DNA from: Escherichia coli
GTDB lineage: Bacteria; Pseudomonadota; Gammaproteobacteria; Enterobacterales; Enterobacteriaceae
Assembly: GCF_011045215.1 (NCBI RefSeq)
Contig: NZ_CP049201.1
Strand: one strand, 5' to 3'
DNA: 64,000 nt
The position numbers and the translations under genes are program-made. This document shows, piece by piece, positions 1 to 20,086 of this stretch. Under the pieces are notes generated by a model that saw nothing but the letters and a program-made list of their open reading frames with translations, made no database searches and was not told where the DNA came from. Numbering within the stretch: the first letter of the stretch is position 1; the number at the start of each line of letters is the position of its first letter.

Positions 1-936
1 CTCCCGTACCCCGAAGCCCCGTGTGATAAAGCGCACTTCCGCCCCCGCTTTCAGCAATACCGGTCGGCAGGGCAGCGTTATCGTCATCTGACGCCCCGCT
101 TTCTGCACCCGCTTTACCTTCGACTGTGCACAATGTTCTGCCGTGCCCTGGTCTGGCTGGGTGAAGGGATGACGCTTGTCTGTGGACTCCACATCCACTT
201 TAAGTTCACGCGTGCGACCATCAGACGGAGTAAAGTACCTGACACCAACCTTTCCCCCTTTTCCGCCTCCGGATGCCCCCTGCCGATCGCCCTCCCGGTA
301 ATCCCAGTCTGACACCATATCCGGTGTGATAGTCATCACAGGGGCATCCCTGCCTCCGGTACTCTGCGACGCACCATACTCCAGAAATAACCAGTAACCG
401 TTCGTCGGTTTACTGGTGGCACCGTACATCCCTGCAAGCCGGGAAAGCAGGGACGCATCCGACTCAGATGACTGCATCACCCACGGAATACGAATTTCCT
501 CCAGTACCGGAGATACCCGCGCCACCAGATTATTTTCAGTGGCGATCGTTTTTACCAGGTCACCCAGCGTGACATCGCTGAAGGCGCGGGTTTTCAGTGC
601 AGTCACATCTGCACCATGCCTGGACGCATTCATGGGGGCTGCGGTGGCATAAATGGTGATCCGGCGGGGAGGGCCACCGCTTGCCACCTGACAGACAGTA
701 AAGCTACCCTTATTCACCAGACGTCCGTTAAACCCCAGCCCCAGCGTTAATACTGCGCCTTTCGGTGGCAATGCCAGCGTTTCACTGAACAGCGTTATCA
801 TTAACTCATCAGCCCGCTTTGTGGCAGCACCATTATCGGTATAACGCAGTTCAGCCAGTCCGCGTTTTATTGCTTTCGTGATATCCTCGCCTTCCACCGT
901 CAGACTGAAATCCGGCTGATATTCATTCAGTCCCAT
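1..936 (-). CDS. Tail protein D-like (P2 gpD family), partial; C-terminus beyond window
   Basis: Minus frame open from ATG at 936 to window edge (MGLNEYQPDFSLTVEGEDIT...); follows U and X as in P2/phiCTX tail clusters. Confidence 0.55.
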   Translation of the reverse strand, partial: MGLNEYQPDFSLTVEGEDITKAIKRGLAELRYTDNGAATKRADELMITLFSETLALPPKGAVLTLGLGFNGRLVNKGSFTVCQVASGGPPRRITIYATAAPMNASRHGADVTALKTRAFSDVTLGDLVKTIATENNLVARVSPVLEEIRIPWVMQSSESDASLLSRLAGMYGATSKPTNGYWLFLEYGASQSTGGRDAPVMTITPDMVSDWDYREGDRQGASGGGKGGKVGVRYFTPSDGRTRELKVDVESTDKRHPFTQPDQGTAEHCAQSKVKRVQKAGRQMTITLPCRPVLLKAGAEVRFITRGFGVRE

Positions 937-1145
937 AACTGAAACGTCTCCTTCTCTTCCGGCTCATATGTCCAGTCCGGTAACACAATTTCCACCCCGG
1001 ACGGATACACCGGACCAAGGTCAGCCAGCCCGGGATTGGCTTCCAGTACCGCCGCCAGTGACTGGTTGAGCCCGGCGCTGCCGTAGTGTCTCTGACAGAT
1101 ATCATCCAGCATATCGCCGTCAGTGGTCCGCCAGTTTTTCGCCAT
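927..1145 (-). CDS. Tail protein X (LysM-like, P2 gpX family)
   Basis: 72 aa; ...AVLEANPGLADLGPVYPSGVEIVLPD... resembles P2 gpX; sits between U and D. Confidence 0.65.
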   Translation of the reverse strand: MAKNWRTTDGDMLDDICQRHYGSAGLNQSLAAVLEANPGLADLGPVYPSGVEIVLPDWTYEPEEKETFQLWD

Positions 1146-1614
1146 AGTATTTCAGCTCCAGTGTGAACGTTTTGTTTTTCGGCGCACCGCCGGGAAGAAA
1201 GGACGTGGTGTTATCTGAATAGGCGGTTACAACAAAATACCCCATCACATCCCCCGTCCCGGAAACCAGCAGATGCGGCGCAGGATTTTTATCCACCATC
1301 TGAACCAGCGTATCAAGGGCATCCATCCCCACACCGTCACGAAATCCCGCATGAACCATCCCTTCAAGGCTTATCGTTCTGGCCCCCTTACCGGTATACT
1401 GCAGCAGATCATTTTTTCCGATTAACTGCTGCTCATCCCATCGCCATTCCATGGTGCGCTTCATGGCGTTATACGCCGCTGAATCAATACTGAACTCAAA
1501 CTCACCAAACGACAGCATGACCCGCGAGGCCACATCGGTTAATGAACCAATCCTGTCCCATGCCCTGCGCTCAATCATGTTTGCGCCAAAGCCAACAAAA
1601 TCCACCATCATCAC
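1120..1614 (-). CDS. Tail protein U (P2 gpU family)
   Basis: 164 aa starting MMM..., gpU-like; immediately downstream of tape measure gene. Confidence 0.65.
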   Translation of the reverse strand: MMMVDFVGFGANMIERRAWDRIGSLTDVASRVMLSFGEFEFSIDSAAYNAMKRTMEWRWDEQQLIGKNDLLQYTGKGARTISLEGMVHAGFRDGVGMDALDTLVQMVDKNPAPHLLVSGTGDVMGYFVVTAYSDNTTSFLPGGAPKNKTFTLELKYYGEKLADH

Positions 1615-3266
1615 CCCCAGAATGCATAACTGTCGGTCATGCTGGCCCGCTGGCCAAAATCAATATCACCCAGATTTTTCGTCACCCTGTCTGCCAGCTG
1701 TCCGGCATCCTCGCCGGGCTTCTGGGTGAGGTTAAATTCAGCCCGTATCTGATACGTGGGTTTTACTTCCACCTGGCTGATACTGCCCGGAACGTAGTGA
1801 AGCGCAGAAAGAGGATCCGTTTTTTCCTGCCCCTGTTTTGTAGCGGGTGGGGTGTCATACTTCGCGAGGACATCAAGCGCTTTCTTTTCCCATCCGTCAA
1901 AGTCCGGATCGTCTTCTGGCCCCAGAAAAGGCTCGAGGGACGCCTCAAATTTTTTATCGTCATCACTCAGGAAACCGCGTGTGTCTGTATACGCCTTCAC
2001 AACCTGCTTCGTCAGATCGGGATTTTTTTTAAGCTGATCATCAAACCATTTATCCTGCCCGTTCCTCTTCGCCACTGCCCTTGCCAGCTCTGGCGAGCCT
2101 GTTTTTGCCAGATATTCCAGCACCTCACGCCGGTCACTCCGTGGATCTTCAGCCAGCCCCCACTCGATGGCCTTTTCAGTGAGCCCGGCAATGACTTTTC
2201 CAAAATTCCACGCCCAGGCCGTCACCTTGATCAACATCGGCAGCGCGTCCTCTCTGATAAATGTATTGATTTTTTCCAGCCCGCCGTTTTTAAACCAGTC
2301 CGCCAGGTCGTCCGTGACCTGCTGAATATTCGGTGCCAGCTCTTTCCCCAGCTGTCCACAGATTTCATCAATGGACGAACCCAGAACACCGGTGAGGTTT
2401 GAGACGGCGATATGTCCCCGGACGGCACCATCCGCCCCTTCCCTGGTCACCAGGTTATAGCGCTTCTGCTCCTCAATAAGCTCCCGGTAAGTTTTTCCTG
2501 ACAGACGCATCCAGGTCAGGATCTTATTACCCTCACCACCAAACAATGCATCCGCCATCCCGGCAGCCTTTTGTTCATCCTTCACCTGCAGCAATCGGTC
2601 AAAAAGAAATTCAACCTGCTCCTGGTTGTTTTTTCCCGCCATCGCCCCGGCTTTCAGCCCCAGCGCCCCGAAGACCTGCTGTATGGCACCTTTATCCGAT
2701 GCGCCATTATCATCATCAAAAACCTTGTTGCGGTACTCCTCAAACAGATCCCCGAAGTTTTCCCCGTTCAGCCCCATCTGCTTACCCAGCGAATCCCACG
2801 CTGCATACGTCTCATAATCCACACCGTAACTCCGGGCTATCCCTGCCCGCTCTGCAGTTTCACTGTTCCGGCTAAATGCTGCACCGGCAGCGCCTGCCAG
2901 TGTCAGTCCTGCCCCGACCGAAAGCCCTAACCCCGCTTTCAGAGCGGTCTTTCCACGCCCTTTCCAGCGTTCCAGACGTTCCGCACGTGCCAGCTTACGG
3001 TTAAATTTATCCTGCTCTCCGGTGGCATCATGAATTTTTTTGCCCAGCTTTTCATACTGCTTTCGCAGTTCAGTAATATCCTGCCCTGCCAGTACGCCAG
3101 CCTGAATTTTTCGTTTCAGTACATCCTGCTGGCGAGTCAGGCGAGCCACTTCCTGCGTTGCCCCTGATAATCCGTGCTTCAGTCCATCAACCGATTTTTT
3201 CCACGACGGATCTATCGTGCCGCCGATCCTGATATTCGCTTTCAGGTTATCGCCCACCGTTGCCAT
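1611..3266 (-). CDS. Tail tape measure protein
   Basis: 551 aa, coiled-coil N-terminus and Gly/Ala-rich hydrophobic segment; follows E/E' chaperone gene. Confidence 0.8.
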   Translation of the reverse strand: MATVGDNLKANIRIGGTIDPSWKKSVDGLKHGLSGATQEVARLTRQQDVLKRKIQAGVLAGQDITELRKQYEKLGKKIHDATGEQDKFNRKLARAERLERWKGRGKTALKAGLGLSVGAGLTLAGAAGAAFSRNSETAERAGIARSYGVDYETYAAWDSLGKQMGLNGENFGDLFEEYRNKVFDDDNGASDKGAIQQVFGALGLKAGAMAGKNNQEQVEFLFDRLLQVKDEQKAAGMADALFGGEGNKILTWMRLSGKTYRELIEEQKRYNLVTREGADGAVRGHIAVSNLTGVLGSSIDEICGQLGKELAPNIQQVTDDLADWFKNGGLEKINTFIREDALPMLIKVTAWAWNFGKVIAGLTEKAIEWGLAEDPRSDRREVLEYLAKTGSPELARAVAKRNGQDKWFDDQLKKNPDLTKQVVKAYTDTRGFLSDDDKKFEASLEPFLGPEDDPDFDGWEKKALDVLAKYDTPPATKQGQEKTDPLSALHYVPGSISQVEVKPTYQIRAEFNLTQKPGEDAGQLADRVTKNLGDIDFGQRASMTDSYAFWG

Positions 3267-3427
3267 AACGTCGCCGCCTCTCTTCCGATTCCTCCAGCAT
3301 CATTGACACAAAATCTGCATACGGCAGCGCCATCACATCTCCGGGAGACCACCCGAACCAGGCACCGGCGCGCCGTATCGCTGTCAGGATGCTGTCTTCT
3401 TCCGCCTGACCGGCGGCAGCAAAAAAA
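3247..3427 (-). other. Predicted -1 programmed frameshift extension (E+E')
   Basis: Coding-strand T TTT TTG at 3427-3421; -1 frame stays open 59 codons to a stop at 3249-3247, overlapping the tape measure start. Confidence 0.55.
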
Positions 3428-3686
3428 CATTAAACTGCCGCTCCAGGGCCAGGTAATCACACGCTTCCATATTCATCATGTCCGCCGCATCCATTCCGCA
3501 CAGGCCGGCTATCATATCCAGATCGGCTTCTGCTTCCGGCTTGGTACTCCGGCGATGTAACAGACGATCGCGGACGGTGGGTGCACGCATGGTGACATGC
3601 GAGATTGTCTGACCTGACGCAGTGACATACGGCACGGATAACACAATCTCCACGCTGCTGCAGGGAATACTGTTTATCTCTGGCAT
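3384..3686 (-). CDS. Tail assembly chaperone E (P2 gpE-like)
   Basis: 100 aa ORF between tube and tape measure genes; slippery heptamer near its 3' end. Confidence 0.6.
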   Translation of the reverse strand: MPEINSIPCSSVEIVLSVPYVTASGQTISHVTMRAPTVRDRLLHRRSTKPEAEADLDMIAGLCGMDAADMMNMEACDYLALERQFNVFLLPPVRRKKTAS

Positions 3687-3746
3687 ATTGATTTCCTCTT
3701 AAAAAGAAAAGGCGGCCTGAACCGCCTGAATGACCACTTCTCCGGA

Positions 3747-4265
3747 TCACACCCGGATAATTTTTTTCAGATCCGACAGCACATTCACACCGTTAATGCG
3801 CCGTACAAACTGCTCCGGAATAATGCAGATGGTCTCCAGTCCATCGACAGCCTGGCGGTAATAACTCAGTGACATTTCCACCGACACCGCTGCTTCTGCC
3901 TGCGAGGTGGACGGACGCGCATCCGGCGTGATACTGGTGATCATCCCCTGAAGGGTTTCCACCAGACCGCTTGTTGCACCGCCCACCTGATACGCCTGAC
4001 GGACAACAATTTCTGGCGAATAAATCCCTGCCTGCAATCCCAGCAGAGTCAGTATGGCCACGTCGTATCCGTAAATTTTAAACGAGCAGGTCAGCGCCTC
4101 CATACCGTCATCCACTGACACCGGCGCATCCATCGCACCGGTTTTGATGTCCACCTTCGTGATATTGATGGCCGGAGGCGTGTACTCATGTGCCCCCTGA
4201 AGGCGAATACCACCCGGCAGAAAGAGCGCCCATGCCCGTAGCAGTTTTTTTTCGCACGACATCAT
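3747..4265 (-). CDS. Tail tube protein (P2 FII-like)
   Basis: 172 aa, same length and position as P2 FII downstream of sheath. Confidence 0.75.
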   Translation of the reverse strand: MMSCEKKLLRAWALFLPGGIRLQGAHEYTPPAINITKVDIKTGAMDAPVSVDDGMEALTCSFKIYGYDVAILTLLGLQAGIYSPEIVVRQAYQVGGATSGLVETLQGMITSITPDARPSTSQAEAAVSVEMSLSYYRQAVDGLETICIIPEQFVRRINGVNVLSDLKKIIRV

Positions 4266-5737
4266 ACTGTCAGTTCCTCCTGTGCCAGTTTATTGTTGAT
4301 CATTGTACGCAGCGTCAGGCGTTCCAGTGGTGACTTCGGCCCGAAGTCATAGTCGATATACAACTGCCCGGCAGCCAGGGTTTCTGCTGTATTCAGTTCG
4401 TCGTTCAGCCATGCGCTACCACCGTGGATCGCGCCCAGATTTTTAAGCTGGCGCATGTAGGCATTAATACTGCCGAGAATATCGTCCGCAACATCCCGAT
4501 CAATCGGACGGTCAACATAAGGCAACATGGATTCCTGAACACTGTCTTCAATCACATCAGCCGTACGGCGCACGGACTCAAAGCGCAACTGGCTATGAGA
4601 TGTGCACAGGCGGTTACCCCAGTGTTTAAAACCGTCATGACGAATAATGGTGGAGATGTTTTCCATGTTCAGCAGATTTGCCGTGCAGTTCTGCTCCCCG
4701 AGAATAAATGTATCCACCTGCTCAAGACCGGTGATATTCATCACGTCCTGATTTGATTTGGACCACCACCATCCTTTTTCATAATCAATACGGGCACGCA
4801 GTCCGGCAGCGCGTGCCGAATACGGGCGAAACACTGTTTGTCCGCTGTCATCCGTCACCGACACGCGCGGACGAAGCAGTTCAACACGCCCACCAAATAA
4901 CGTCCGGCGCTGAACCACATCCTGCGGCGTTACCATTGAGGGGGAGTCAATATAGGCAACAGCCCGCAGTTTCGCGGCATACGTTTCCAGCGCCTTTGCC
5001 ACACCATCATCCTCGCTGTAGCCAGTGGCGACAAGAATACGCGGCTGGTAGCCTGTTACGCCTTTGCTCTTCGTCAGAGCTTCCATGGCCTTAATCACTG
5101 CGGCACGCTGTTCTGCCTCCTTCGCTTTCGGTTTGCTTTCCGCACGTACCACAATCACCAGCGCACCGGTCTGGTCAAAAATATCACGCAGGGCAGGATA
5201 CAGCGTTCCGGAAGCCCCCAGCTTTCCGGCCTGCGTGAGTGCCCCCGCCACCACCACCGGCGTATTAACCGGAAATGCCTCATCCTCACCGCCGGACAAC
5301 GTCAGGGTAAAGGGAGATACCACTCCTTCCCCGACAGAATCTGCATTCAGCATGCTGGTATCGGCCATCACCGGTGAATCCTCCAGCGCATTCACAACCT
5401 CCTTCACACGTGACGCAGTGGCATTCGTCTCACCATGTTCATCTGTGCCCAGTGTGATCGTCAGGGTGTTTCCCTCCAGAGCCGCGGTTGTCTCTGCGTT
5501 TTGCTGCGTGCTTCCGTTGGCCACAACTGAAATCTCATTGCCGGACCGCCCGGCTTTTTTCGCTGTAAAATCCAGCGCGGAACTCAACAACCATGATCCG
5601 GCAGTACCGGAAGCACACACACCGCCGGAGGCGTCCGGCGCTGTCCCCACGAGGCCAATCACTGCCGTGGAGACGGTCTGCACGGCCACCGTGCCTGTCG
5701 TCAGTTCAATGGTTTCCACACCATGTAGTCCGGACAT
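4262..5737 (-). CDS. Contractile tail sheath protein (P2 FI-like)
   Basis: N-terminus MSGLHGVETIEL...VSTAVIGLVGTA and C-terminus ...LYIDYDFGP...LTLR resemble P2 FI; ORF track start 5824 is probably an upstream extension. Confidence 0.85.
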   Translation of the reverse strand: MSGLHGVETIELTTGTVAVQTVSTAVIGLVGTAPDASGGVCASGTAGSWLLSSALDFTAKKAGRSGNEISVVANGSTQQNAETTAALEGNTLTITLGTDEHGETNATASRVKEVVNALEDSPVMADTSMLNADSVGEGVVSPFTLTLSGGEDEAFPVNTPVVVAGALTQAGKLGASGTLYPALRDIFDQTGALVIVVRAESKPKAKEAEQRAAVIKAMEALTKSKGVTGYQPRILVATGYSEDDGVAKALETYAAKLRAVAYIDSPSMVTPQDVVQRRTLFGGRVELLRPRVSVTDDSGQTVFRPYSARAAGLRARIDYEKGWWWSKSNQDVMNITGLEQVDTFILGEQNCTANLLNMENISTIIRHDGFKHWGNRLCTSHSQLRFESVRRTADVIEDSVQESMLPYVDRPIDRDVADDILGSINAYMRQLKNLGAIHGGSAWLNDELNTAETLAAGQLYIDYDFGPKSPLERLTLRTMINNKLAQEELTV

Positions 5738-5792
5738 ACATTTCTCCCATAAAAAAACCGCCCCTGAGGCGGTCAGTTGATTTACTTCTTTT

Positions 5793-6338
5793 TCAGGTGT
5801 TTTGTGGAGGTACTGGCCACTCAATGGCGTTATATGAGGTTTTATCAGTGATGGTGCTGAAATCCATCGCCTGCAGCGATTTCGCGTAAATGCGGTACGC
5901 TTTCAGCTTTTCCCTGTCCTCGTCGCTGATTAATCCCAGCAACAGGTCTTTTTCCCATTCGCTGGTCATTATACTGACCTGTTTTAACAGGGCATCACGC
6001 TCGTCTTCCGCTTTAAGTTTGTAGTCGAAAACAAATTCATCATTGCGGTAAAACCAGTAGCCTGATGCTTCAATGCGACGATTAGCGGTAATATCCGGCA
6101 ACTCAATCACGCTTTTATTTTCCGGGCAGATTGAGGTGATGTCTTTTCCGACCCAGACCACTTCGCCAGTTTCAACATAAATAACTTTCAGGGTGTCTGG
6201 TAGAAATTTTTCCTGGGCTTCGTGCCATTCCTGTCCATCATCTGAGAACAGCCACAATAAAAATTTATGCTGTCGCGCCAGCTGGTATTGCTCAATTGTT
6301 TTAGGGTTTTGTACCGTAATATTTTTTAAGTGCATCAT
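5793..6338 (-). CDS. Tail fiber assembly protein (Tfa/gpG-like)
   Basis: 181 aa directly downstream of tail fiber gene; C-terminal ...IEWPVPP typical of Tfa chaperones. Confidence 0.6.
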   Translation of the reverse strand: MMHLKNITVQNPKTIEQYQLARQHKFLLWLFSDDGQEWHEAQEKFLPDTLKVIYVETGEVVWVGKDITSICPENKSVIELPDITANRRIEASGYWFYRNDEFVFDYKLKAEDERDALLKQVSIMTSEWEKDLLLGLISDEDREKLKAYRIYAKSLQAMDFSTITDKTSYNAIEWPVPPQNT

Positions 6339-10195: not shown

Positions 10196-10711
10196 CGCCG
10201 GTGCCCTCCGCTTTCCAGATAAGACGATAATCCTGCACATGCTTTTTACCGGTTTCCGGTACTTTACCCAGCCAGACTTCCTGTAACGGCACACCTGCCG
10301 GAGCCGCAAACGGATCTTCGCCGACCGGAATGTCCTGTTCAAAAGAGAAAGCAAACAAACAAGATAATAAGTTGAATTTAAAGGAATAAAAAAGGCATCA
10401 TTTTTGCTTTTGGTACAAATTCTAGTCCGTATAAACGCGGAAAAATCCGCTAAATTAAGATAAAAAAGATGCTTAGATAGTTACTATGTTTAGCTTCATG
10501 GCTACGGGGAGTAAGTTTGCTCTTTGCTTAATCTCGGTTATGGAAATCCCCATATCGGCATCATGCCCACCAGCGTGACGCATTTTTTTTAATTTCGCGG
10601 GTATAAAAATTTGACGAGGCGGGCGGTCCCATAAGCAATGGGGTGTAGGGATTCCGATCCCCCTGGGGGGGGTATTAAACACCCACCCTATTTAAATACC
10701 GTCTTTTTTGT

Positions 10712-10757
10712 CACTGTGTGTCACTGGTTGTCACTCTCCGTCACGGTATGCCACCAT
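10712..10757. repeat. Clustered GTCAC(T) direct repeats
   Basis: tgtcactgtgtgtcactggttgtcactctccgtcacgg: four copies within 46 bp in a noncoding stretch between tail and island. Confidence 0.6.
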
Positions 10758-10760
10758 AAG

Positions 10761-11075
10761 TTAACGTCGTAACCGCTCCGGCTTCTTCCAGTGGTAAGTA
10801 ATTTTTTCTTTCTCCTGGTACATCTGCACGCGGCGACGGTATGACAACATCTCCAGAACTCTGGTGCGTATATTGCGCATATCCACGCCGTTAAGCTCAA
10901 TACCGTCACGGCGCATCACCTCAGCCACCACACGCGCGTAATTTTCGGCTATCACGCTGTCCGGCTGCGTGGCCTCCTGTTTGCCTGCTGGTGGTCTGAT
11001 TCCGGCAGCACGGCGAATCATTTTGAGCATTTCGGCTTCGGTCATTGTCATGGCCTCCGTGGTGATGGAAAACAA
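10761..11075 (-). CDS. Hypothetical protein
   Basis: 104 aa ORF (probable start MTMTEAEMLKMI...) just downstream of island terS; no family recognised. Confidence 0.4.
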   Translation of the reverse strand: MFSITTEAMTMTEAEMLKMIRRAAGIRPPAGKQEATQPDSVIAENYARVVAEVMRRDGIELNGVDMRNIRTRVLEMLSYRRRVQMYQEKEKITYHWKKPERLRR

Positions 11076-11084
11076 TGCCGTAAT

Positions 11085-11310
11085 TGTGGCGGGTCCTTCC
11101 TGGAAAATGAAACACCGGGGGTGGCCATACGCGCAATTCTTAACTGTTTATGAAAATTTTTCGGGAAAAGTCAGATCCGTTCTTCTTCTCTGTAACTCAT
11201 TGTTTAATGGTAAAATCATCAAAAAAAGAAAGGATCTGGCAGTGGTCATTCTGGGCCCAAAATGACGTTATCAGATCCTTTCTCAGTTTTGTTCAATAAT
11301 TGCGCGGTTG
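11085..11310 (+). other. cos-like site, inverted copy (cosQ-cosN-cosB-like)
   Basis: Plus strand GGGTCCTTCCTGG..GAAACACCGGGGGTGGCCATACGCGC..TTTATGAAAATTTTTCGGG..CCGTTCTTCTTC aligns with phage lambda cos as I recall it; opposite orientation to the other two cos sites. Confidence 0.55.
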
Positions 11311-11895
11311 TCACTCAGCTCTCTGTTGCCGTAACTTCTCCGGCACGTTTCCGGTTGTTTCCATCAGATAATCTTCCAGAATGCGGGGCAGGTTATCGGC
11401 AGTTTTAGCGCACGCATTACAGGCGCGTGCTGTTTCCCTCCTCAGGCCATCGATCATTGCCGGAGTCATCGCGGGAAACTGCCTTTGCATCGTAAGGGGC
11501 AAGCTATTCATGATGGTTGAAATCTGTTGCGCCAGTTTAGACAGTGCATACATACAAAAGCCGGTATCTATAACCTCTCCTGTCTCCCTGGCGTTCTTCA
11601 GTTCCTGCCCGTCAGCCTGTGCTTTAGTGAGACGGTATCGTTCGTACTCTGTTGTGCCTGGCTGTAAATCTGATTCACCAACGGCACGTAAATCATCAAG
11701 CTCACTGCGGAGTTTTTCTTTTTCGATCTCCTTCTCCCTCTGTACATACCATTCGATCACCTGTGAAGAGTCGAAAGTCACCTCCATACCTTTTCCGCCA
11801 CCAGATACATGGGGGAGCCCTTGCATCTGCCAACGTTCAATTGTGCGCGGATCAACACCGAAAATCTCTGCCAGTCTCTTTTTGTTAACATTCAT
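11311..11895 (-). CDS. Terminase small subunit (lambda Nu1-like)
   Basis: MNVNKKRLAEIFGVDPRTIERWQMQGLP...GGGKG...LQPGTTEYERYRL... closely resembles lambda Nu1 throughout. Confidence 0.85.
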   Translation of the reverse strand: MNVNKKRLAEIFGVDPRTIERWQMQGLPHVSGGGKGMEVTFDSSQVIEWYVQREKEIEKEKLRSELDDLRAVGESDLQPGTTEYERYRLTKAQADGQELKNARETGEVIDTGFCMYALSKLAQQISTIMNSLPLTMQRQFPAMTPAMIDGLRRETARACNACAKTADNLPRILEDYLMETTGNVPEKLRQQRAE

Positions 11896-12130
11896 TTATC
11901 AAATCCTCATCAAAAACCACCTCCGACATGAAACGCCTGAAAAACGGGATTTTCCGGCGTTATGGTGTCGTATGTTTATTATAGTTAATTTAAATAAAAA
12001 CATAATGTTACATGCAAGAAGTACCGACATGCTTTTTCCCTGAAAAATTTTCATAAATAGTGAAAATCTGCGCGTCTGCCGCCCCGCGGTGTTTCTGATT
12101 CTGGAAAGGACCCGTGAAAATTGGGGCGAT
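11896..12130 (-). other. cos site of island (cosQ-cosN-cosB)
   Basis: Minus strand ACGGGTCCTTTCC..GAAACACCGC GGGGCGGCAGAC GCGCAG..CTATTTATGAAAATTTTTCAGG about 190 nt upstream of terS start, matching lambda cos geometry. Confidence 0.6.
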
Positions 12131-12194
12131 CACCACCGTTCCGGATACAAAAAAAATCGCGAGACCTTGCCAGCCTCGCGAACGTTCATTTCAG

Positions 12195-12620
12195 TTACTT
12201 AACAGACAGCAACAGCTTTTCATCTTCGGTCAGTCCGGCGTTGCCATCACCGGCTGCTGGCCCAACACATTTCGGGCTGTGCTTTTCCATGTACGCTTCA
12301 AACAGAAAAGCCGTTTTCTTTTCCTGCATCATTGCCTGGGCATCCACGGCAGCCAGTAACGTTTGTGCATAGGTTACTGTCATTACTTCAGAACCACACT
12401 CAATCAGCTTACTGGTGAACTCAGGGTATTTTGATGCCAGCGGTAACGCCTTGATACCCTCTATGCGCTGTTTATCACTCTCAGCCTTTGCAGTAAGCAC
12501 CGTTCGGGCTTCTGTCAGTGATGCGCCATTATTTGCGAGATTTTCCGCAAGCGTCGGGTATTTCTGCGCCTCAGGCAGTGCCATGATCAATGCTCTGGTT
12601 GAATTTGCTTTCTCAGTCAT
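12195..12620 (-). CDS. Scaffolding protein (Nu3-like)
   Basis: 141 aa; ALPEAQKYPTLAENL.../ALPLASKYPEFTSKL... repeats resemble the C-terminal repeat region of the prophage C protein (24914-26395). Confidence 0.5.
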   Translation of the reverse strand: MTEKANSTRALIMALPEAQKYPTLAENLANNGASLTEARTVLTAKAESDKQRIEGIKALPLASKYPEFTSKLIECGSEVMTVTYAQTLLAAVDAQAMMQEKKTAFLFEAYMEKHSPKCVGPAAGDGNAGLTEDEKLLLSVK

Positions 12621-12634
12621 AAATCACCACAAAA

Positions 12635-12964
12635 TTATTGCCCTAAAGGCTGCACGGAAATACCGGAACCAACAAAAGACGACACTTTTTTCTCGAACGT
12701 GTCCGCTGTATCAGGCCAGTTAATTTCATCGATATTAAAAACCCCGCACTTATAAACCTGTGCGCGGTTTTTTGTGGCCGTGTTAATGTCCGATATGGTC
12801 AGATACACCGCCTTACCGGGTGTACCGTCCCACTCAACCATCAGGCCCGCGCCGTTCTGCATCAGCGGAGTTCTCGCTTTAATTTCTCCGGCACTGGCAA
12901 AACAGGCCAGCGTGCTGACCAGTTCCTGCGTGCCGGAAAGGAATTGCGTGTAAGGTGTTGGCAT
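12635..12964 (-). CDS. Head decoration protein (lambda gpD-like), divergent second copy
   Basis: 109 aa; TPLM...GLMVEWDG...VYKCGVF...WPD...GSGISV pattern matches gpD. Confidence 0.75.
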   Translation of the reverse strand: MPTPYTQFLSGTQELVSTLACFASAGEIKARTPLMQNGAGLMVEWDGTPGKAVYLTISDINTATKNRAQVYKCGVFNIDEINWPDTADTFEKKVSSFVGSGISVQPLGQ

Positions 12965-12974
12965 ACGATCCCCT

Positions 12975-14030
12975 TTATTTCACTTCGACGGTAACAAAGC
13001 GACCAATATCCACGGGTACTGGCTGCGGGGCGCTGTGCGTCTGCACGTATTCAATCGCCGGATCGCCCGGTACGATATAATTTTTCGGGTAGTACATCCC
13101 CTCAGAAAATCCCTCGCGTGCCGCGTCCTGATCCATGATGGCACCATAAGCAACAAGGCCTTTATTTTCGGTATTGCCGAAAACCATCATGTTTTGTTTC
13201 AGGAAATATTGCTGCTGCCCGTTTTCGTCGTCATAACGACCGGAATAAACCACGATCGCCACATCACCGAGATACCCCTTGAAGCTGACAACGCCGCCCA
13301 AATCTTTTAGCGCAAGTTCAAGTGACGAGTTTGAACCGCGACGCGTGTCCATTAGTTCGCGGAATCGACGGAACGAGCGCAAAATACGCCAGGCTTCGCC
13401 ACCCATGACGATAATATTTACCGTACCTTCGGAAAAATCAGCGTAAGCCTCAATGTCGCTTATCGGATCAAACGTTTCGGCATCCTGTTTTGACCATTCT
13501 TTCCCGCCAGCCTGCGTAATATGATTGGTTTCGGGTAATCCCCAGTCAATTTCATAACGCTCAATGCCTTCGCCCTCAATAACGTTACGGCCTGTTGTGA
13601 TGGCATTGACCGCCAGCCATTCAACACGCGCTTTGATGGCAGCAAGCTGTTTTTTCTGGCTGTCGTGAACCATTTTTACGCGGCGTAGTGCCGGGGAAGA
13701 CTGACCATTGCCGATCTGTTCTCCAGGCATGCGCATGATTGTTTTGGTGGGATCAATAACGTGTTTGGGCTTCATATAACCCGGCGTGAACGTGTTCGTT
13801 GTGAAACCTTTGTCACGCATAACCTGGCTGCCTGACATTGGAGAACAAAACGGACTCATGACCACGTTTTCAATATCCAGCGTATCAAGTGCAATATCTC
13901 TGGTGCTGAAAGTAGCGACGTTCGGAAAGAACAACGTAGTAAAGAGTGGATTAAATTTAAATTCCGGCACATCTTCGCGCCCGATATTTTTCAGTAGCGT
14001 TGGTGTGCTTACCAGTTGCGGCGCTGTCAT
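12975..14030 (-). CDS. Major capsid protein (lambda gpE-like), divergent second copy
   Basis: 351 aa; TPGYMKPKH, NITQAGGKEWSKQDAETFDP, DTRRGSNSSLELALKDLG motifs shared with lambda E and the prophage E at 23439-24467. Confidence 0.85.
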   Translation of the reverse strand: MTAPQLVSTPTLLKNIGREDVPEFKFNPLFTTLFFPNVATFSTRDIALDTLDIENVVMSPFCSPMSGSQVMRDKGFTTNTFTPGYMKPKHVIDPTKTIMRMPGEQIGNGQSSPALRRVKMVHDSQKKQLAAIKARVEWLAVNAITTGRNVIEGEGIERYEIDWGLPETNHITQAGGKEWSKQDAETFDPISDIEAYADFSEGTVNIIVMGGEAWRILRSFRRFRELMDTRRGSNSSLELALKDLGGVVSFKGYLGDVAIVVYSGRYDDENGQQQYFLKQNMMVFGNTENKGLVAYGAIMDQDAAREGFSEGMYYPKNYIVPGDPAIEYVQTHSAPQPVPVDIGRFVTVEVK

Positions 14031-14236
14031 TACTCACCCCCATGAGGCTGATTCATACCAAGCGCAGCGCGTAAATGGCTGCGTACCATCCAGCCGACTG
14101 ACGGCTTCACCAGGCACAACGGATCAAGGCCGATTTTTTTTCCTGCCTCTGCGTTCTCCTCAAAGCGCGCATTAAGTGCGGCGATAATATCGGGGCTGAT
14201 GTACACGGATACACCGCCCGGCTTCTGTGTTCCCAT
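14030..14236 (-). CDS. Hypothetical protein
   Basis: Small ORF immediately upstream of island capsid gene; no family recognised. Confidence 0.3.
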   Translation of the reverse strand: MGTQKPGGVSVYISPDIIAALNARFEENAEAGKKIGLDPLCLVKPSVGWMVRSHLRAALGMNQPHGGE

Positions 14237-14494
14237 AAATGAGATTCCTCTTTGACTAAAAAACAAACATAACGAAAAGTCATGTCATGATTTTAATTAT
14301 CGTTGCACTTTTTGCAATATAATTGACTATTGTTGCGAATAATGAAATCATTATGTCGTGGTTTTAATCCTTGTACCACAGAGTTGTTTAGCATTAATCA
14401 CGTTAGCGGCGTGAAATCCCCCGGAACCTCATCCCGGGGGATTTTTTTGCGCACAAAAAAGCCGGGAAAAATCCCGGCTTCTGTCACTCGTTGC

Positions 14495-14917
14495 TTAAAA
14501 CGGTATTTCATCCCCGTACGGATCATCATTTCCCGCCTGTTGTTTTGCTCTGCTCAGTGCATCAGTAGCCTGCCCCTGTTGGCCTTTTTTGCCGCCCGGT
14601 CGCGCCGTTCTGGCACTGATTACACTGTCTGCGATAACCTGCCAGCTCTGCCGCGTTTCGCCGTTCTGGCCTGTCCACTGGCTTACCTGCATGTTACCCG
14701 CCACGCTCACCAGTTCGCCTTTGCGGTGTTTTGCCAGTGCGTCGGCCTGTCTGCCAAACGCCAGGACGGATAACCACATCGTCGCCGTTCCGTCATCTGC
14801 CTGGCTGCACGGCAGGGGAACCGCCATACTCGCCATCGCCATTTGTGTTCCCTTGCTGGTGGTCTTTAACTGCGGGTCAGCCACCAGCCGCCCGTAAGCT
14901 GCTATCTGTGCTGTCAT
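14495..14917 (-). CDS. ssb: Single-stranded DNA-binding protein
   Basis: 140 aa with Gly/Gln-rich linker and acidic C-terminal tip ...DDPYGDEIPF typical of SSB. Confidence 0.7.
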   Translation of the reverse strand: MTAQIAAYGRLVADPQLKTTSKGTQMAMASMAVPLPCSQADDGTATMWLSVLAFGRQADALAKHRKGELVSVAGNMQVSQWTGQNGETRQSWQVIADSVISARTARPGGKKGQQGQATDALSRAKQQAGNDDPYGDEIPF

Positions 14918-15165
14918 GCTGTCTGCTCTCCGGTTTTAACGTTGATGGTTGTCACCTGTTCCGCTTCGGCAATCTCCCGCTCTGTCAGCGTGGCAAAGTT
15001 TGCCGCCGCTGTGGTCATGAATGCGCTTATCAGTTCGGGATGTGCTTTTGCGTATCCTTCTCCGGCATGGCGGTCTATTGTTCTGATTGCCACCTTTAAG
15101 GCGTGCTCTGTCATGTCTAACGCTTTATATTTTGGCGCTGTCTTATCTCTGGTTTTTTTGGTCAT
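14914..15165 (-). CDS. Hypothetical protein
   Basis: 83 aa ORF between replication gene/iterons and ssb. Confidence 0.4.
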   Translation of the reverse strand: MTKKTRDKTAPKYKALDMTEHALKVAIRTIDRHAGEGYAKAHPELISAFMTTAAANFATLTEREIAEAEQVTTINVKTGEQTA

Positions 15166-15188
15166 TTCTCACTATTCCCCACTTTTTC

Positions 15189-15367
15189 GCCTCACTTTTT
15201 AAGCTCCCAACATGATTTCCAACCTTGTTTTTTTGTGATTCTAATATGTTGTTTTTCAATGTGTTTTTTATTCCTCACTTTTGAGCCTATATACAGGTTG
15301 AAAAGTGAGGGGCGCGGTTGCTTTTTGTTCAGTTTCTGCTATCCCCTCACTTTTGTGCCTCACTTTT
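15189..15367. repeat. Iteron cluster (putative island replication origin)
   Basis: CCTCACTTTT at 15189, 15273, 15345, 15358 plus inverted copy AAAAGTGAGG at 15301, directly 3' of helicase-primase gene. Confidence 0.55.
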
Positions 15368-16782
15368 TACAGTGGGCGCACATCATCACCGTCAATAGTG
15401 ATAACGCCGTCTCTTTCCAGCTTGTACAGCCAGCGCCGAAAGTTTTTCATCTCATACCCCAGCTTTTTCATATCATCACGCAATAACGGGATAGTGCATT
15501 TATCGCCGCGCTGTGTGCGTGAACGGATACAGCCCCATAGCGCGGCGTGATTCTCCGTCTTGTTTCCGGCCTCCTCAATGCGCTCCAGTTCAACAGGTGG
15601 GCGCGGCTTATCCACTACCACCAGCGACGTGATTAACTCCTTGTCAGCGTCGATAAAAAGCTCCACCACGCGTAAATCGTATGCGGCCTCTTTCAGTTCC
15701 TCTGCGTCCTTCATTTTGGTGCAGGAGATAACCAGGGCTTCACTGTCTGCACCTTCCCGGCGAATACGGTATTCAGCGTCCAGAGATGCACGAAATGCAC
15801 TGGAACCACGCGCCCCCTTTGTTTCATCCTTGCCGGAATGGTGAACCACCAGTACCGTGGCCCCTGTGCGTCGTTTCAGTTCGTCACATCCACGGATAAA
15901 CGCCCCCATATCCCGCGCGTCATTTTCATCATTACCGCCAAAACACCGCGCCAGCGTATCCAGAATAATCATGCGTACCGGTTTACCCGTTTCCCTTTCA
16001 ACCTGGCGGGAAGCGATGACCATTTCATCAATATCAAACTGTGCTGCCGGAAAAATCGGGCGGTTTACCAGGTACAGATTTTTCACCCGTTCATCATTAA
16101 CGATTTCCCATGCTTTGATACGACGAGGGACACCAATGCCACCTTCACCGACGACATACATCACCGAACCATGCGCCACCCTGCGGCCTCCCCAGTGGCG
16201 ACCCGTGGCAACATGACACGCCCAGGAACACGCGAGGAATGATTTATAGGAACCGCTCGCGCCGTATGTGCTGCACAACGAATTAGCCGGAATCACGCCC
16301 TTAACGACATAATCAAGCTGTGTGTCGTACCCTGCAGATCCAATACTCATTGGTAGCGTGGTTTTTCGCTGGTCGTTTTTTTCTTCCTCCGGTATCTCTC
16401 CGGACCGTCTTTTCTGGCGCTCTCGTTCCAGATATTCGCGCCACCCCTCCCGCTTCTGGCTGTGCATTCCCTCAGGGTAATAATTCGCATCCCGTACACC
16501 TGCCGCTGCCAGCTTTTGCCCGATGGCATTAATATTTGACGGCTTGATGTGGCCTGCCTTGTACAGCCGGACACAATAGCGACCATCGTCGATAATTTTC
16601 AGGTCAGCCAGTTCGTCAAGATGGCTGTCTCCAAGCCATACAGGCGGAACATTGTCGCCAGCAAGTCGCCCGTCCTGCTCCTGCCATTGTTTCGCGTGCG
16701 CCCAGGCATCACTACCCGCAAAAATAATGACTTCGGTCATTTTGTCGTGCGGCTGTTTTTTTAAGTTCGGTGCCAGTTTCAT
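15367..16782 (-). CDS. Replication protein, RepA-like helicase/primase (AAA_25-type P-loop NTPase)
   Basis: 471 aa; Walker A GASGSYKS, Walker B RMIILDTLARCF, ...VLVVHHSGKDE...; N-terminal extra domain. Confidence 0.7.
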   Translation of the reverse strand: MKLAPNLKKQPHDKMTEVIIFAGSDAWAHAKQWQEQDGRLAGDNVPPVWLGDSHLDELADLKIIDDGRYCVRLYKAGHIKPSNINAIGQKLAAAGVRDANYYPEGMHSQKREGWREYLERERQKRRSGEIPEEEKNDQRKTTLPMSIGSAGYDTQLDYVVKGVIPANSLCSTYGASGSYKSFLACSWACHVATGRHWGGRRVAHGSVMYVVGEGGIGVPRRIKAWEIVNDERVKNLYLVNRPIFPAAQFDIDEMVIASRQVERETGKPVRMIILDTLARCFGGNDENDARDMGAFIRGCDELKRRTGATVLVVHHSGKDETKGARGSSAFRASLDAEYRIRREGADSEALVISCTKMKDAEELKEAAYDLRVVELFIDADKELITSLVVVDKPRPPVELERIEEAGNKTENHAALWGCIRSRTQRGDKCTIPLLRDDMKKLGYEMKNFRRWLYKLERDGVITIDGDDVRPL

Positions 16783-17078
16783 TTTTTACCCCTGAATGCG
16801 TTAATCATGTTTTTCATTTTCTGAATGTTCGCCCGTGCCTTTGCGTTGCTGGTGGGCTGTTTGCATGGCGTGGCCTGTATCAGTGAAAAATCACGCCGGA
16901 ACTGATAAACAGGCATCACGCAGTCATAGCCGTACCCATCACGGCGGTAAGTAACGCACCGTCCCGCCACGCTTTTAATCGTTACCGTGCCGCCGTAGTT
17001 ATCCCGGAAAATATCGCCGGGGCGGATTTCAGGCCGAGCGGGGCCGCTGGCAGTAAAGCCAGAAATTTTCTGTTTCAT
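16779..17078 (-). CDS. Hypothetical protein
   Basis: 99 aa ORF, start overlaps helicase-primase gene. Confidence 0.4.
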   Translation of the reverse strand: MKQKISGFTASGPARPEIRPGDIFRDNYGGTVTIKSVAGRCVTYRRDGYGYDCVMPVYQFRRDFSLIQATPCKQPTSNAKARANIQKMKNMINAFRGKK

Positions 17079-17094
17079 GGTTTTTATTCCTCTG

Positions 17095-17294
17095 CGCGGG
17101 TCTTGTTGTGTATTTCCATAACCGCGTTTAATTCATCAATAACCGGGGTTAACAGAGTGCTGAAAGCAGAAAATAAATCCCCCCCCCTGTTCGGCATGAA
17201 CTTCGGTTAATTTAATTAATACCGCTTTCATTTCCAGTGCCCGGTTTAATGCATTCTCAGAATGAATAAGAACATCGAAAGGGATTTTATCCAT
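17095..17294 (-). pseudogene. Small ORF interrupted at G9 homopolymer (frameshift or phase-variable)
   Basis: ATG at 17294 reads MDKIPFDVLIHSENALNRALEMKAVLIKLTEVHAEQGGG then poor frame; with G8 it continues ...DLFSAFSTLLTPVIDELNAVMEIHNKTRAEE to a stop 5 nt before next gene. Confidence 0.35.
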
Positions 17295-17753
17295 GGCTTA
17301 CATCCTCCGGGAATTTTCTTCTGTAACGCGCCTCTGCAACATATTCCGCATAGTCCGACGCAATATTGAGAATCTCCACACCCTCTGACCTGTAGCCACT
17401 GGTACTGATAAGAAAAAATGCGGCTTTCATCATGTCGGCAACGCATAACAACGCATCGCCTGTATGTTCCGGTGCGCCATCAAATTCCTGTTTCAGGGCA
17501 TTAAAACGATCATCACGCATAACCCCCCCCCATTTTCACAATCAGTAATCAGGATGGCTTTAGCCTCATTCAGTGCCATATCAGCACTAAATTGCATAAC
17601 AGCCAGTGAGTGAGGAACGAAATCCCCGGCATATTCTGTTTCGCTGGTGGCGTGCTTATGTGCCCTGTCCGCGATAACAGAAATATCAATCAGCGCGTGC
17701 ATCAGCGTTTTGATGGCTTCGGCGGCTGCGTCCTGACGGGTGTTATTGCACAT
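17287..17753 (-). pseudogene. Gene split by G9 homopolymer (86-aa + 77-aa ORFs; fuse with G10)
   Basis: ORF 17493-17753 ends ...CENGGGLCVMIVLMP; one extra G in the tract at 17523-17531 gives ...GGGVMRDDRFNALKQEF... continuous with ORF 17287-17520. Confidence 0.4.
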
Positions 17754-17949
17754 GGCGCACCTCCTGACGAATACGGGCGGCGAATACCATCACGCAGCCA
17801 TCAGGAGATTGCTGACGCGCTTCCTGTTCGTTGGTGGCCTCAATGGTAATCACGCGCGGTTGTGCCGTGCTCAGGGCGATAAAACGCCAGATGTATTTAT
17901 TCAGGTTGTGCGAGTCCCGCCCTTGCGGGTGTGTGGTATGATTTAACAT
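17743..17949 (-). CDS. Small protein, first gene of leftward island operon (Cro-like position)
   Basis: 68 codons (MLNHTTHPQGRD...RHVQ) with RBS GAGGT; divergent from RHH gene across operator region; not in ORF track as a separate ORF. Confidence 0.4.
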   Translation of the reverse strand: MLNHTTHPQGRDSHNLNKYIWRFIALSTAQPRVITIEATNEQEARQQSPDGCVMVFAARIRQEVRHVQ

Positions 17950-18088
17950 AGCTACCTCGATAATCTTGCTATCGTTGGTGGTTAGACGCCCTGCATGTGT
18001 ACCACCACTGCGGGGCGTTGCGTTTTTTGATGTGCACGTGTTAAGGTGTACACCTAACGAACCAAAACATAACGCCATAGGTGTACAC
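17950..18088. promoter_or_regulatory. Divergent promoter/operator region of island
   Basis: Perfect palindrome GGTGTACACC at 18045-18054 and GGTGTACAC at 18080-18088 just before the RHH start; CACGTG at 18033. Confidence 0.5.
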
Positions 18089-18283
18089 ATGTCAACAGTT
18101 ATTAAGCGCGATAAAAAACAAAAAGGCACAGGAAAGGCCCCACCATTCCATATGCGTATAGTCCCTGAATTGAAGGAGCAGTTTGATAACGAAGCCAGTA
18201 ACGATGGAGTAAGTCTTGCCAACTGGCTTAAAGAGTTAGGGCGCAAAGAACTGCTACGGCGCGGAATTGAACCAAAGGGATAA
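18089..18283 (+). CDS. Ribbon-helix-helix-like DNA-binding protein (putative island repressor or antitoxin)
   Basis: 64 aa from MSTVIKRDKKQKG...; basic N-terminus, start right after operator palindromes. Confidence 0.45.
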   Translation: MSTVIKRDKKQKGTGKAPPFHMRIVPELKEQFDNEASNDGVSLANWLKELGRKELLRRGIEPKG

Positions 18284-18292
18284 CTATCACTA

Positions 18293-18823
18293 ATGTCGCA
18301 ACCAGAGGAGTTGCGACTCCGAAGATTACATAGGAAATTAATGATTATGGGATTCGTCATTTTCATTGCGATCGTAATTTTATCCATTTACGTTCTTACC
18401 AAATTATTTATTTCAGAAAATTCACACGACAAAATTAGAGCCGAGGCATCCAGAAGAATTGCACAAGAAGAGGCCGAACGGGCTAAGTTGTATGAAGAGA
18501 GAAAGGAATCATCTGATAATCCTGTTAATAAACAAAAACGAATAACAACACACGAAGATCATTTTTATATGGATATTCATGGTGGTCACAAATATATATG
18601 TGTTGATGCTAAGTTAGTTTTTGAATATGCAAATTTAAAACACAACTATTTTCTTCACGCCTCTCACTATTTCCCTGAGTTAGAGTATGTTTATGGAAAA
18701 AACGAACATGGGAAAATAGTTAGAGTAGATTTGTACGATAAAAAAATTCAAGCTATTAACCCCGATACTGGCGAAAAAATACCTGGTGTGAGACGTTATC
18801 TACGACAGCACAAGATAAAATAG
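18293..18823 (+). CDS. Hypothetical membrane-anchored protein (AT-rich cargo gene)
   Basis: 176 aa; N-terminal TM helix MIMGFVIFIAIVILSIYVLTKLF; markedly AT-rich; followed by hairpin+T-run terminators. Confidence 0.45.
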   Translation: MSQPEELRLRRLHRKLMIMGFVIFIAIVILSIYVLTKLFISENSHDKIRAEASRRIAQEEAERAKLYEERKESSDNPVNKQKRITTHEDHFYMDIHGGHKYICVDAKLVFEYANLKHNYFLHASHYFPELEYVYGKNEHGKIVRVDLYDKKIQAINPDTGEKIPGVRRYLRQHKIK

Positions 18824-19238
18824 CCCACCGGAATTTTTTTCCGGTTACGCTTTGCCCACCAGCCGCAAATGTGGCATTGTTGGCTATGCTCATGCGTTGG
18901 GGATAACGCGCAATTAGTGTTGAAGGGCCACCGTAGCGGGTGGCCTTTGTTTTGCCTGTTATCCGGCAATTGTGGCGCTTCGCCACACGGTTGATATAAT
19001 CCTCCTGCACAGATTCATTTTTTGCGCAGCAGGTTAATTGTTCGCAAGGGCGCTCCGGCAACTGGGCGCTTTTTGTTTTTACCCACCAGCACAATAAAAA
19101 TCTTCATTTTCCATTTTTGCAAAATTTCATGCTTTCCGGACGACTGGCCATATGTCATTTTTTAGCAGAAGATTTTGCCTTGCTGGTGGGTAGCTTCCCG
19201 GTTAACACGATGTACCGTATAATCAGCACCGCACGCGG

Positions 19239-19820
19239 TTACTGAATACGCTCACCAAAGTAAAACTCAGGCTGATATTCACGTATCAGCCTTTTTTCTT
19301 CTTCCTCCAGCTCACGCTTTTTGCGCTTACATGCCTGTAGTTCCCTCCCCTTCTCGCTGGCACTTATCTGGTATTGCTCTTTGCGACGGGAAAAATCCTG
19401 TAATGCGCCCCACGGGATACCATAAGCCCCCGTTTTTCTGATACCCGGTATCACATTTCTGAATACCCAGTTACTGAAACGATGGGCGAACGTGCCAGGA
19501 GTAGCAGCTTTTCGACTTCTGGCAATCAGCTTGTAAAAACCAGATTCAGAAACGACGCTATGATTTGGATTTCCGCGAATACCGTAAGTTAAAGTTACGG
19601 TATTACTTTCATCATCATCCAGAGCTTGCAACGCCATGCGTGAATTAGTCAGTTCCAGCGCAGCGCAGACATCCTTTGCAACAAACCACGGATCGCCGTT
19701 CAGATACACCACGCGAACGTTCACACTATCAAAGCGCAGAACGACCAGATCACGAATATCACAGAATTTTTTCACTGGACGTGCGTCACCCTTGCCAGTC
19801 ACGGCAATATTTTTATTCAT
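19239..19820 (-). CDS. Bro-N domain protein (putative antirepressor)
   Basis: 193 aa; N-terminal ...GDPWFVAKDVCAALEL... Bro-N-like; coiled-coil C-terminus. Confidence 0.55.
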   Translation of the reverse strand: MNKNIAVTGKGDARPVKKFCDIRDLVVLRFDSVNVRVVYLNGDPWFVAKDVCAALELTNSRMALQALDDDESNTVTLTYGIRGNPNHSVVSESGFYKLIARSRKAATPGTFAHRFSNWVFRNVIPGIRKTGAYGIPWGALQDFSRRKEQYQISASEKGRELQACKRKKRELEEEEKRLIREYQPEFYFGERIQ

Positions 19821-19870
19821 CGCTTTTTACCTCACATACAAAAAACCCCGCATTGCGCGGGGTATATCAA

Positions 19871-20080
19871 TCATTGACGATATTCATTAGCTTGTTTTCG
19901 TTGTCTTTCCAGCCACGATGCAACATCATCACGATGCCATGCGTTGCGTCGCCCAATCTTAAAGGGGCGTGGAAATTTATTTTTTTCATCATTCATGAAA
20001 GCGTAAAATGCACTCATTGCACCGTAGCGAAGCTCTGCCATCACGTCTTTGGTAAATAGAATATTGCCGTTAGTGCTCAT
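19871..20080 (-). CDS. AlpA-family transcriptional regulator/excisionase-like
   Basis: 69 aa, ...RRNAWHRDDVASWLE... typical AlpA/Xis HTH; immediately downstream of P4-type int. Confidence 0.75.
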   Translation of the reverse strand: MSTNGNILFTKDVMAELRYGAMSAFYAFMNDEKNKFPRPFKIGRRNAWHRDDVASWLERQRKQANEYRQ

Positions 20081-20086
20081 ATTGCC

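Follow-up and report, generated by a model that had tools for sequence, protein, structure and literature searches.

A probable −1 programmed ribosomal frameshift in the E-type tail chaperone gene of an Escherichia coli prophage with a P2-type contractile tail

We consider here a putative −1 programmed ribosomal frameshift in a prophage tail module that lies in a 64,000-nucleotide (nt) stretch of Escherichia coli DNA, contig NZ_CP049201.1 of assembly GCF_011045215.1, with the whole stretch being called the window in the following. The locus is on the minus strand, the strand along which the coordinates are given and the gene order is read. Between the gene for the tail tube and a candidate gene for the tail tape measure there sit two overlapping frames, which we call E and E', and homologues of gpU and gpX come next. 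The features of the locus are as follows.

5824..4262, minus strand: tail sheath gene, given as the mechanical open reading frame (ORF) of 520 amino acids (aa) with a TTG start at 5824 (PF04984, PF17482)
4265..3747, minus strand: tail tube gene, FII-like, directly upstream of E (PF04985 Phage_tube, 79.1 bits)
3727..3700, minus strand: terminator-like hairpin in the tube-E gap (stem 3727..3710, AGGCGGTTCAGGCCGCCT, plus T tract)
3686..3384, minus strand: E-type tail assembly chaperone, the 0-frame product of 100 aa (PF10109 Phage_TAC_7; phrog_166)
3444..3441, minus strand: Shine-Dalgarno-like GGAG, candidate stimulator, read from the sequence
3426..3420, minus strand: slippery heptamer T TTT TTG in the X XXY YYZ phase (gene offset 260, phase 2)
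3416..3402, minus strand: small GC hairpin CCGCC-GGTCA-GGCGG, weak candidate stimulator, from folding and relatives
3420..3247, minus strand: E' segment, 57 codons in the −1 frame and the TAA stop at 3249..3247, from frame analysis and relatives
3686..3420 in frame 0, then 3420..3247 in frame −1, minus strand: E+E' fusion frame of 146 aa, as constructed
3266..1611, minus strand: probable tail tape-measure gene, 551 aa, from its position between E/E' and gpU and from PHROG matches
1614..1120, minus strand: gpU homologue (PF06995)
1145..927, minus strand: gpX homologue (PF05489)

The E protein matches PF10109 Phage_TAC_7, the family of the E / Mu gp41 type, with 44.8 bits (E-value 1.3e-11; gathering cut-off 25), and the constructed E+E' fusion matches the same profile with 50.2 bits, its residues 14-89 falling on profile positions 2-78 of 79. 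E also matches phrog_166, 'tail protein', with an E-value of 9e-23. By these profile matches the E domain is a member of PF10109. The 551-aa ORF that follows has as its top PHROG match phrog_3654 (function unknown), with an E-value of 1e-203, and also matches, more weakly, eight tape-measure PHROGs with E-values from 3e-10 to 9e-4, and a Pfam scan of it gave no match. Its ATG at 3266 is the start that is used by the NCBI Prokaryotic Genome Annotation Pipeline (PGAP) in E. coli C5.

The 3' end of E reads ...CAG TTT AAT GTT TTT TTG CTG CCG CCG GTC AGG CGG AAG AAG ACA GCA TCC TGA, where the heptamer has the phase GT[T TTT TTG] in the 0 frame, with the TTG being the 12th codon before the TGA (3386..3384) and 11 sense codons following the TTG. 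In the −1 frame (TTT TTT GCT GCC GCC GGT...) the sequence is open for 59 codons counted from the first T, of which 57 come after the slip, and this frame ends at the TAA 20 nt inside the tape-measure candidate, giving the predicted fusion junction ...QFNVFL|AAAGQAEE.... Moreover, in 35 of the 36 sequences that are compared below, a TAA that stands two codons ahead of TTT TTT blocks the −1 frame, and therefore E' can be entered only within the 14 codons between this TAA and the E stop. In this 14-codon interval T TTT TTG is the sole canonical heptamer that permits a shift into E'. A previous reading of the DNA made from the letters alone (the sequence-only reading) had proposed just such an E+E' fusion, placing a T TTT TTG heptamer 12 codons before the stop of an E-like gene, a −1 frame open for 59 codons after it and the end of that frame just inside the tape-measure start. 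All its numbers are correct, with the 59 codons being those counted from the first T and the overlap with the tape-measure candidate being 20 nt, and the interval 3247-3686 that it gave is exactly the fusion reading frame.

It is noted that within a single sequence such a pattern is not rare and is not convincing alone. Among the 170 mechanical ORFs of the window of at least 80 aa, 7 have an in-phase X XXY YYZ heptamer in the last 25 codons that is followed by at least 40 open −1 codons, and about 21% of all positions of the window are open for at least 59 codons. Some of the other in-phase heptamer ORFs lie on the strand opposite to nearby genes, and one further in-phase heptamer, G7 at 17493..17753, was rejected as a candidate, with two ordinary overlapping small ORFs being found there, the second of which has its own ATG. 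The observation at E becomes significant because of its position between the tube and tape-measure genes and because of the comparison with relatives, as described below.

Among 5,426 complete E. coli genomes, at least 73 carry the segment, at 85-99.6% identity, and a scan of IMG/VR with the E protein gave 62 loci. The comparative set consists of 36 sequences, that is, the window with 33 close sequences (together 26 distinct DNA sequences) and two distant members, L034 and L035, with E identities of 56% and 54%, respectively. The heptamer is kept in all the 36, as TTTTTTG in 35 and as TTTTTTA in L035, and an uninterrupted −1 frame of 55-59 codons follows it in every one, ending in nearly all of them 20 nt inside the next long ORF. 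The 0-frame tail of E is also preserved, with its stop lying 7-11 codons after the heptamer in the relatives. Besides this set, two Logan contigs, L070 at 535-720 (SRR12298936) and L071 at 249-431 (DRR571128), have T6 rather than T7 at the slip site, with the consequence that gene callers give there an ORF MFFAAAG..., that is, E' read from the ATG of AATG. L070 has further apparent indels in E, and the T6 in both contigs is probably due to homopolymer errors; because these public contigs show T6, it is seen that the T7 run is easily miscalled.

The selection acting on E' was determined in the 117-nt stretch that codes for E' only, after the E stop and before the next ATG, using the 26 distinct sequences. 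The 41 variable sites of this stretch are distributed as 7, 8 and 26 over the three −1-frame codon positions (chi-square p = 2.3e-4), and the ratio of nonsynonymous to synonymous polymorphism (pN/pS) stands at 0.27 when the −1 frame is read, against 2.07 and 1.77 for the 0 and +1 frames, respectively. The sequence-only reading had named an interruption of the −1 frame in close homologues as the finding that would speak against its proposal, and no such interruption was seen, with stops occurring in 0 of the 26 distinct close sequences in the −1 frame, in 26 of 26 in the 0 frame and in 10 of 26 in the +1 frame, the latter being cut at differing points in many relatives. E' is under purifying selection in the −1 frame. 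At the protein level, 16 residues of E' are invariant in a six-sequence alignment, A1 (37-82% identity to the window E'), and 5 are invariant in a nine-sequence alignment, A2, where the identity goes down to 29%.

We propose that the site is, with high probability, a −1 programmed ribosomal frameshift that makes a 146-aa E+E' protein, in the gene for the tail-assembly chaperone of a prophage whose contractile tail is of the P2 type. During translation most ribosomes would not shift and would terminate at 3384, so that their product is the 100-aa chaperone E. A minority would slip on U UUU UUG, with the P-site tRNA-Phe re-pairing from UUU to UUU and the A-site tRNA-Leu re-pairing from UUG to UUU. 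The slipped ribosomes, moved back by one base, would then translate 57 codons to 3247, giving the 146-aa E+E' with the junction ...NVFL-AAAG..., for which the predicted junction tryptic peptide is QFNVFLAAAGQAEEDSILTAIR. Going by lambda G/GT and P2 E/E+E', the part common to both products, the E domain, would coat the tape-measure protein, and the recruitment of the tube protein would fall to the rarer E' domain. The ratio of E to E+E' for tail assembly would be set by how often the ribosomes slip, with neither protein expected to end in the virion. The ribosomal shift itself, its frequency and the partners of both domains we infer by analogy with these systems. The likeness to P2 E/E' that the sequence-only reading had seen is supported by the gene identity, the gene order and the recoding geometry.

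Several points weigh against the frameshift that we propose. The energies of RNA folding around and downstream of the heptamer are like those of shuffles (z = −0.5 to −1.9), and the seven-T run could also permit some transcriptional slippage. The window E' gives no match to PF06528 Phage_P2_GpE (gathering cut-off 23 bits) even at an E-value of up to 10, and when 1.84 billion representative proteins were searched exhaustively with a hidden Markov model (HMM) of an E' alignment, the matches were 6 fragments of E' only, with a P2-type GpE not being among them. The full heptamer is missing in the nearest phages that have been isolated, Hafnia phage yong2 and Citrobacter phage Chris1 (about 42% E identity), which have a T5 run. 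Finally, an 11-kb insertion interrupts another late gene in this copy of the prophage, which may therefore be unable to produce virions at present.

On the first of these points, a search for a downstream stimulatory structure, which the sequence-only reading had suggested as a check, yielded no convincing one, and a strong structure of this kind was rejected, with the folding energies being indistinguishable from shuffles both at the window locus and in P2 (z about 0 in the P2 folding control). In the literature, no downstream hairpin is described in the P2-like Burkholderia phages or in P2 (PMC3091744). What is found downstream in the window is a 5-bp GC hairpin that begins 3 nt past the heptamer, which is extended to 6 bp in most relatives by an A-to-C change, is kept in L034 and is absent in L035. 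Because its sequence is doubly coding and is without covariation, this hairpin is not counted as evidence. Upstream, the GGAG lies 14 nt before the heptamer, inside the range of 6-17 nt that is applied to stimulatory Shine-Dalgarno-like sequences in PMC4066793. The CTGGAG containing it is invariant in all the 36 sequences but also encodes Leu-Glu. The GGAG is a candidate stimulator only, the conservation of which may reflect the Leu-Glu coding alone.

Transcriptional slippage, to which the T run gives some room, would have the RNA polymerase adding one U in the U7 run, with the resulting junction being ...NVFF-AAAG... and the predicted junction tryptic peptide being QFNVFFAAAGQAEEDSILTAIR. One inserted U would give the same domain fusion, the seven-T homopolymer is present in 35 of the 36 sequences, and slippage-prone homopolymers are generally known as an alternative route to fusions (reviewed in PMC5009743). 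However, L034 has six T only (GCT TTT TTG) and yet keeps the heptamer in phase, because of which this explanation is disfavoured; L035, similarly, keeps TTTTTTA. The conservation is rather in the X XXY YYZ phase, which P2 has too, and the P2 frameshift is annotated as translational. It is also noted that efficient slippage by the E. coli RNA polymerase usually requires runs of more than seven. We consider this route to the fusion improbable.

Still less probable is that E' is a separate small gene with its own start, as implied by the 45-aa 'hypothetical protein' of PGAP. The start of this annotated protein is an ATG at codon 14 of E', which overlaps the E stop (TGATG), arises by a Thr-to-Met change in 11 of the 36 sequences and is used by other gene callers too. 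In the remaining 25, the window and 24 others, none of the start codons ATG, GTG and TTG occurs in E' ahead of codon 30, which excludes a separate gene for most members. The residues of E' that are best conserved in A1 (I11, R16, R17, G19, W21, F22, W24 and P26) all lie upstream of codon 30 and some of them lie upstream of codon 14. The conservation of the E' protein begins at the heptamer (AAAG.AEE..IL), upstream of the codon-14 ATG, the −1 frame opens right at the heptamer, and P2 produces its E' part solely within the fusion. The least probable explanation, that the −1 frame is fortuitous or belongs to one gene that was split by a frameshift mutation or by a sequencing error in the homopolymer, can draw on the similar geometry in the 7 window ORFs and on the T6 of the two low-quality Logan contigs at a run prone to miscalls, but it is disfavoured because of the comparative data, namely the same arrangement in all the 36 sequences, the purifying selection in the −1 frame while the other frames gather stops, the short 0-frame E tail that is likewise kept, and the identical layout in P2.

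Having preferred the ribosomal frameshift, we turn to the origin of the E' domain. Searches of Pfam, NCBIfam and PHROG with the window E' gave nothing, a word-indexed protein search with the E' peptide gave 4 fragments only, and a search of solved structures gave chance-level matches only (E-values of at least 0.14). Three other E' sequences, two from relatives of the window lineage and one from the GC-rich clade described below, match PF06528 at sub-threshold scores of 13.1-14.3 bits (E-values 0.03-0.07) and at matching profile positions, and hhalign of the nine-sequence E' alignment against P2 E' gave a probability of 59.7% over 21 columns, which is weak. Because there is no match of the window E' to PF06528 and no bridge by profile searches, the homology of this E' with P2 E' rests on a weak profile match, and it is probable but unproven that the window E' is a distant relative of P2 GpE.

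In more distant homologues the end of E carries other signals. Hafnia phage yong2 (L068, about 1755-1916) and Citrobacter phage Chris1 (L069, about 1775-1935) have AAT/AAC GTT TTT ATG at the homologous site. In both of them the −1 frame has a stop shortly before this site and then encodes a conserved E' (...DMPFSTF.DFL.DE...), which runs as far as the next gene. The annotation at this E' is a 39-aa 'hypothetical protein' in yong2 and nothing in Chris1. For these two phages, either P-site-only slippage on T TTT suffices or there is less frameshifting. A further group of 30 loci from IMG/VR (L036-L065; GC content 0.60-0.64; E identity 27-33%) has no X XXY YYZ heptamer at the end of E, near locus position 2780. 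In 26 of the 30 the E gene ends in CTT TGA and in two more it ends in TTT TGA or GTT TGA. Downstream, the +1 frame encodes an E'-like peptide of 37 codons (...LAKELGFSSAEIMSMSFSDMIWWLTD), which is conserved and one variant of which is the GC-rich sequence that weakly matches PF06528. CTT TGA is a +1 shift site of the prfB type, and the sequences suggest that in this GC-rich clade the place of the −1 slip is taken by a +1 shift at the stop codon. It is a possibility, to which we give somewhat less than even weight, that homologous chaperones of the E type reach E+E' via different recoding signals, namely the heptamer, GTT TTT ATG and CTT TGA with a +1 shift. If this is the case, they form a natural series in which a recoding site changes its type and direction while the protein product is kept, and the E' of the window lineage would moreover be a sequence family that is absent from Pfam and from NCBI annotation.

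In present annotation the fusion is missing. In E. coli C5, which is 99.6% identical, PGAP calls E a 'phage tail assembly protein' and leaves the 117-nt stretch 3267..3383 unannotated, while in UMNF18 and TUM9812 it gives the 45-aa 'hypothetical protein' at E'. The tape-measure gene is a 'hypothetical protein' for PGAP throughout and is split in two in TUM9812. The Pfam GpE model misses the window E', and therefore automatic pipelines will continue to miss it. The fusion is thus an unannotated new case of a recoding known in tailed phages, which leaves the understanding of the mechanism unchanged. Its value is in the annotation, where the second chaperone product, which is presumably essential, is now either unannotated or a 45-aa hypothetical protein and where the 146-aa fusion completes the tail module. 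For those who train frameshift predictors it is also one more natural T TTT TTG site, one that is well supported and lacks a strong stimulatory structure.

The tail module belongs to an E. coli prophage with head genes of the lambda type, namely those for the large terminase, portal, S49 protease, decoration protein and E-type major capsid protein. The host element is thus a prophage that joins a lambda-type head to a P2-type contractile tail, with only the tail module being P2-like. The P2-like phages (Peduoviridae), as a genome type, combine the P2-type tail with head, packaging and replication genes of the P2 type, and the prophage falls outside that group, and no nucleotide match to any P2-like phage was found. 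There is also no close isolated phage, because megablast of a 4.4-kb tail segment against phage genomes found only a fragment of the tail-fibre-assembly gene.

Compared with the otherwise 98% identical prophage of E. coli C5, the window prophage has an 11.1-kb insertion at 10349..21489, which is flanked by the direct repeat CAAAAGAGA. This insertion breaks a late gene (phrog_1072, 21898..21434), replacing its last 50 or so residues. The insertion carries the following genes.

21418..20087, minus strand: tyrosine integrase
minus strand: Bro/Ant anti-repressor, repressor-like protein and SSB
16782..15367, minus strand: primase/helicase
14030..12975, minus strand: major capsid protein of the lambda-E type
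12620..12195, minus strand: scaffold/protease-C-terminal-like protein
11895..11311, minus strand: small terminase of the Nu1 type

No portal gene was seen in the 11.1-kb insertion. It looks like a capsid-remodelling satellite, similar to the phage-inducible chromosomal islands (PICI-like), inside its likely helper prophage. The prophage together with the insertion is also present in three other E. coli genomes, at about 90% identity.

Two terminator-like hairpins are found in the tail module. For the one in the tube-E gap, a GC hairpin with a T-run is also present, with other stem sequences, in L002, L035, yong2 and Chris1, while in P2 and L034 the gap has a hairpin without the T-run. This hairpin may be an attenuator that lowers the expression of the chaperone and tape-measure genes relative to that of the sheath and tube genes. 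The second hairpin, also with a T tract, is at 5756..5774 on the minus strand, between the tail-fibre assembly and sheath genes. Because the mechanical sheath ORF outruns the 1476-nt gene that PGAP gives in C5 and spans this hairpin (5774..5756), the true sheath start is probably a downstream ATG near 5737.

We finally compare the site with known systems. In E. coli dnaX, tandem slippage occurs on an X XXY YYZ heptamer, like that which we propose for the window, where a Shine-Dalgarno-like GGAG also lies upstream. In contrast to dnaX, the hairpin of the window is small, lies only 3 nt from the heptamer and is without statistical support.

The lambda G and G-T chaperones have reportedly been treated by Levin in 1993 and by Xu, Hendrix and Duda in 2004, 2013 and 2014. 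In lambda two products come from one start by low-level −1 frameshifting between the major tail gene and the tape-measure gene, as is proposed for the window. It is the shared domain of G and GT that binds the tape measure and the extension that binds the subunit of the tail tube, with the ratio of the two products depending on the slip frequency (PMC5009743), and a division of labour of this kind is presumed to be common to the window, with the partners of the window E and E' being assigned by this analogy. Unlike the window, lambda has a G GGA AAG site and a non-contractile tail, and no similarity to lambda G or T was detected in any search made.

The closest known counterpart is that of P2, the RefSeq entry of which (NC_001895) annotates E (91 aa), E+E' (142 aa, '-1 frameshift') and a frameshift-site feature. 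According to the account of Christie et al. 2002 that is relayed in PMC3091744, the slip site in the FETUD tail operon of P2 is TTTTTTG. This TTTTTTG is conserved in P2-like Burkholderia phages that have 49-59% identity to P2 E and E+E' (PMC3091744). The differences from the window are in the details. P2 has 6 sense codons between the heptamer and the E stop versus 11 in the window, an overlap with the tape-measure gene T of 8 nt versus 20 nt, a tape measure of 815 aa versus the candidate of 551 aa, and a P2-type head versus the lambda-type head genes of the window prophage, and P2 E' matches PF06528 while the window E' does not. The P2 and window fusions have about 22% identity (BLASTP E = 0.017), with an alignment that is colinear over both domains and includes the motif FGWSPGDV against FHWPPSEL, and PF10109 is the family of the E domain in P2 as it is in the window. 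The gene order of sheath, tube, E, E', T and U is common to both. Moreover, P2 has the same heptamer in the same X XXY YYZ phase and with the same −1 direction, and the extension that it leads into, which P2 makes only as part of the fusion, is of 57 codons, equal to that of the window, and likewise ends a few bases inside the tape-measure gene.

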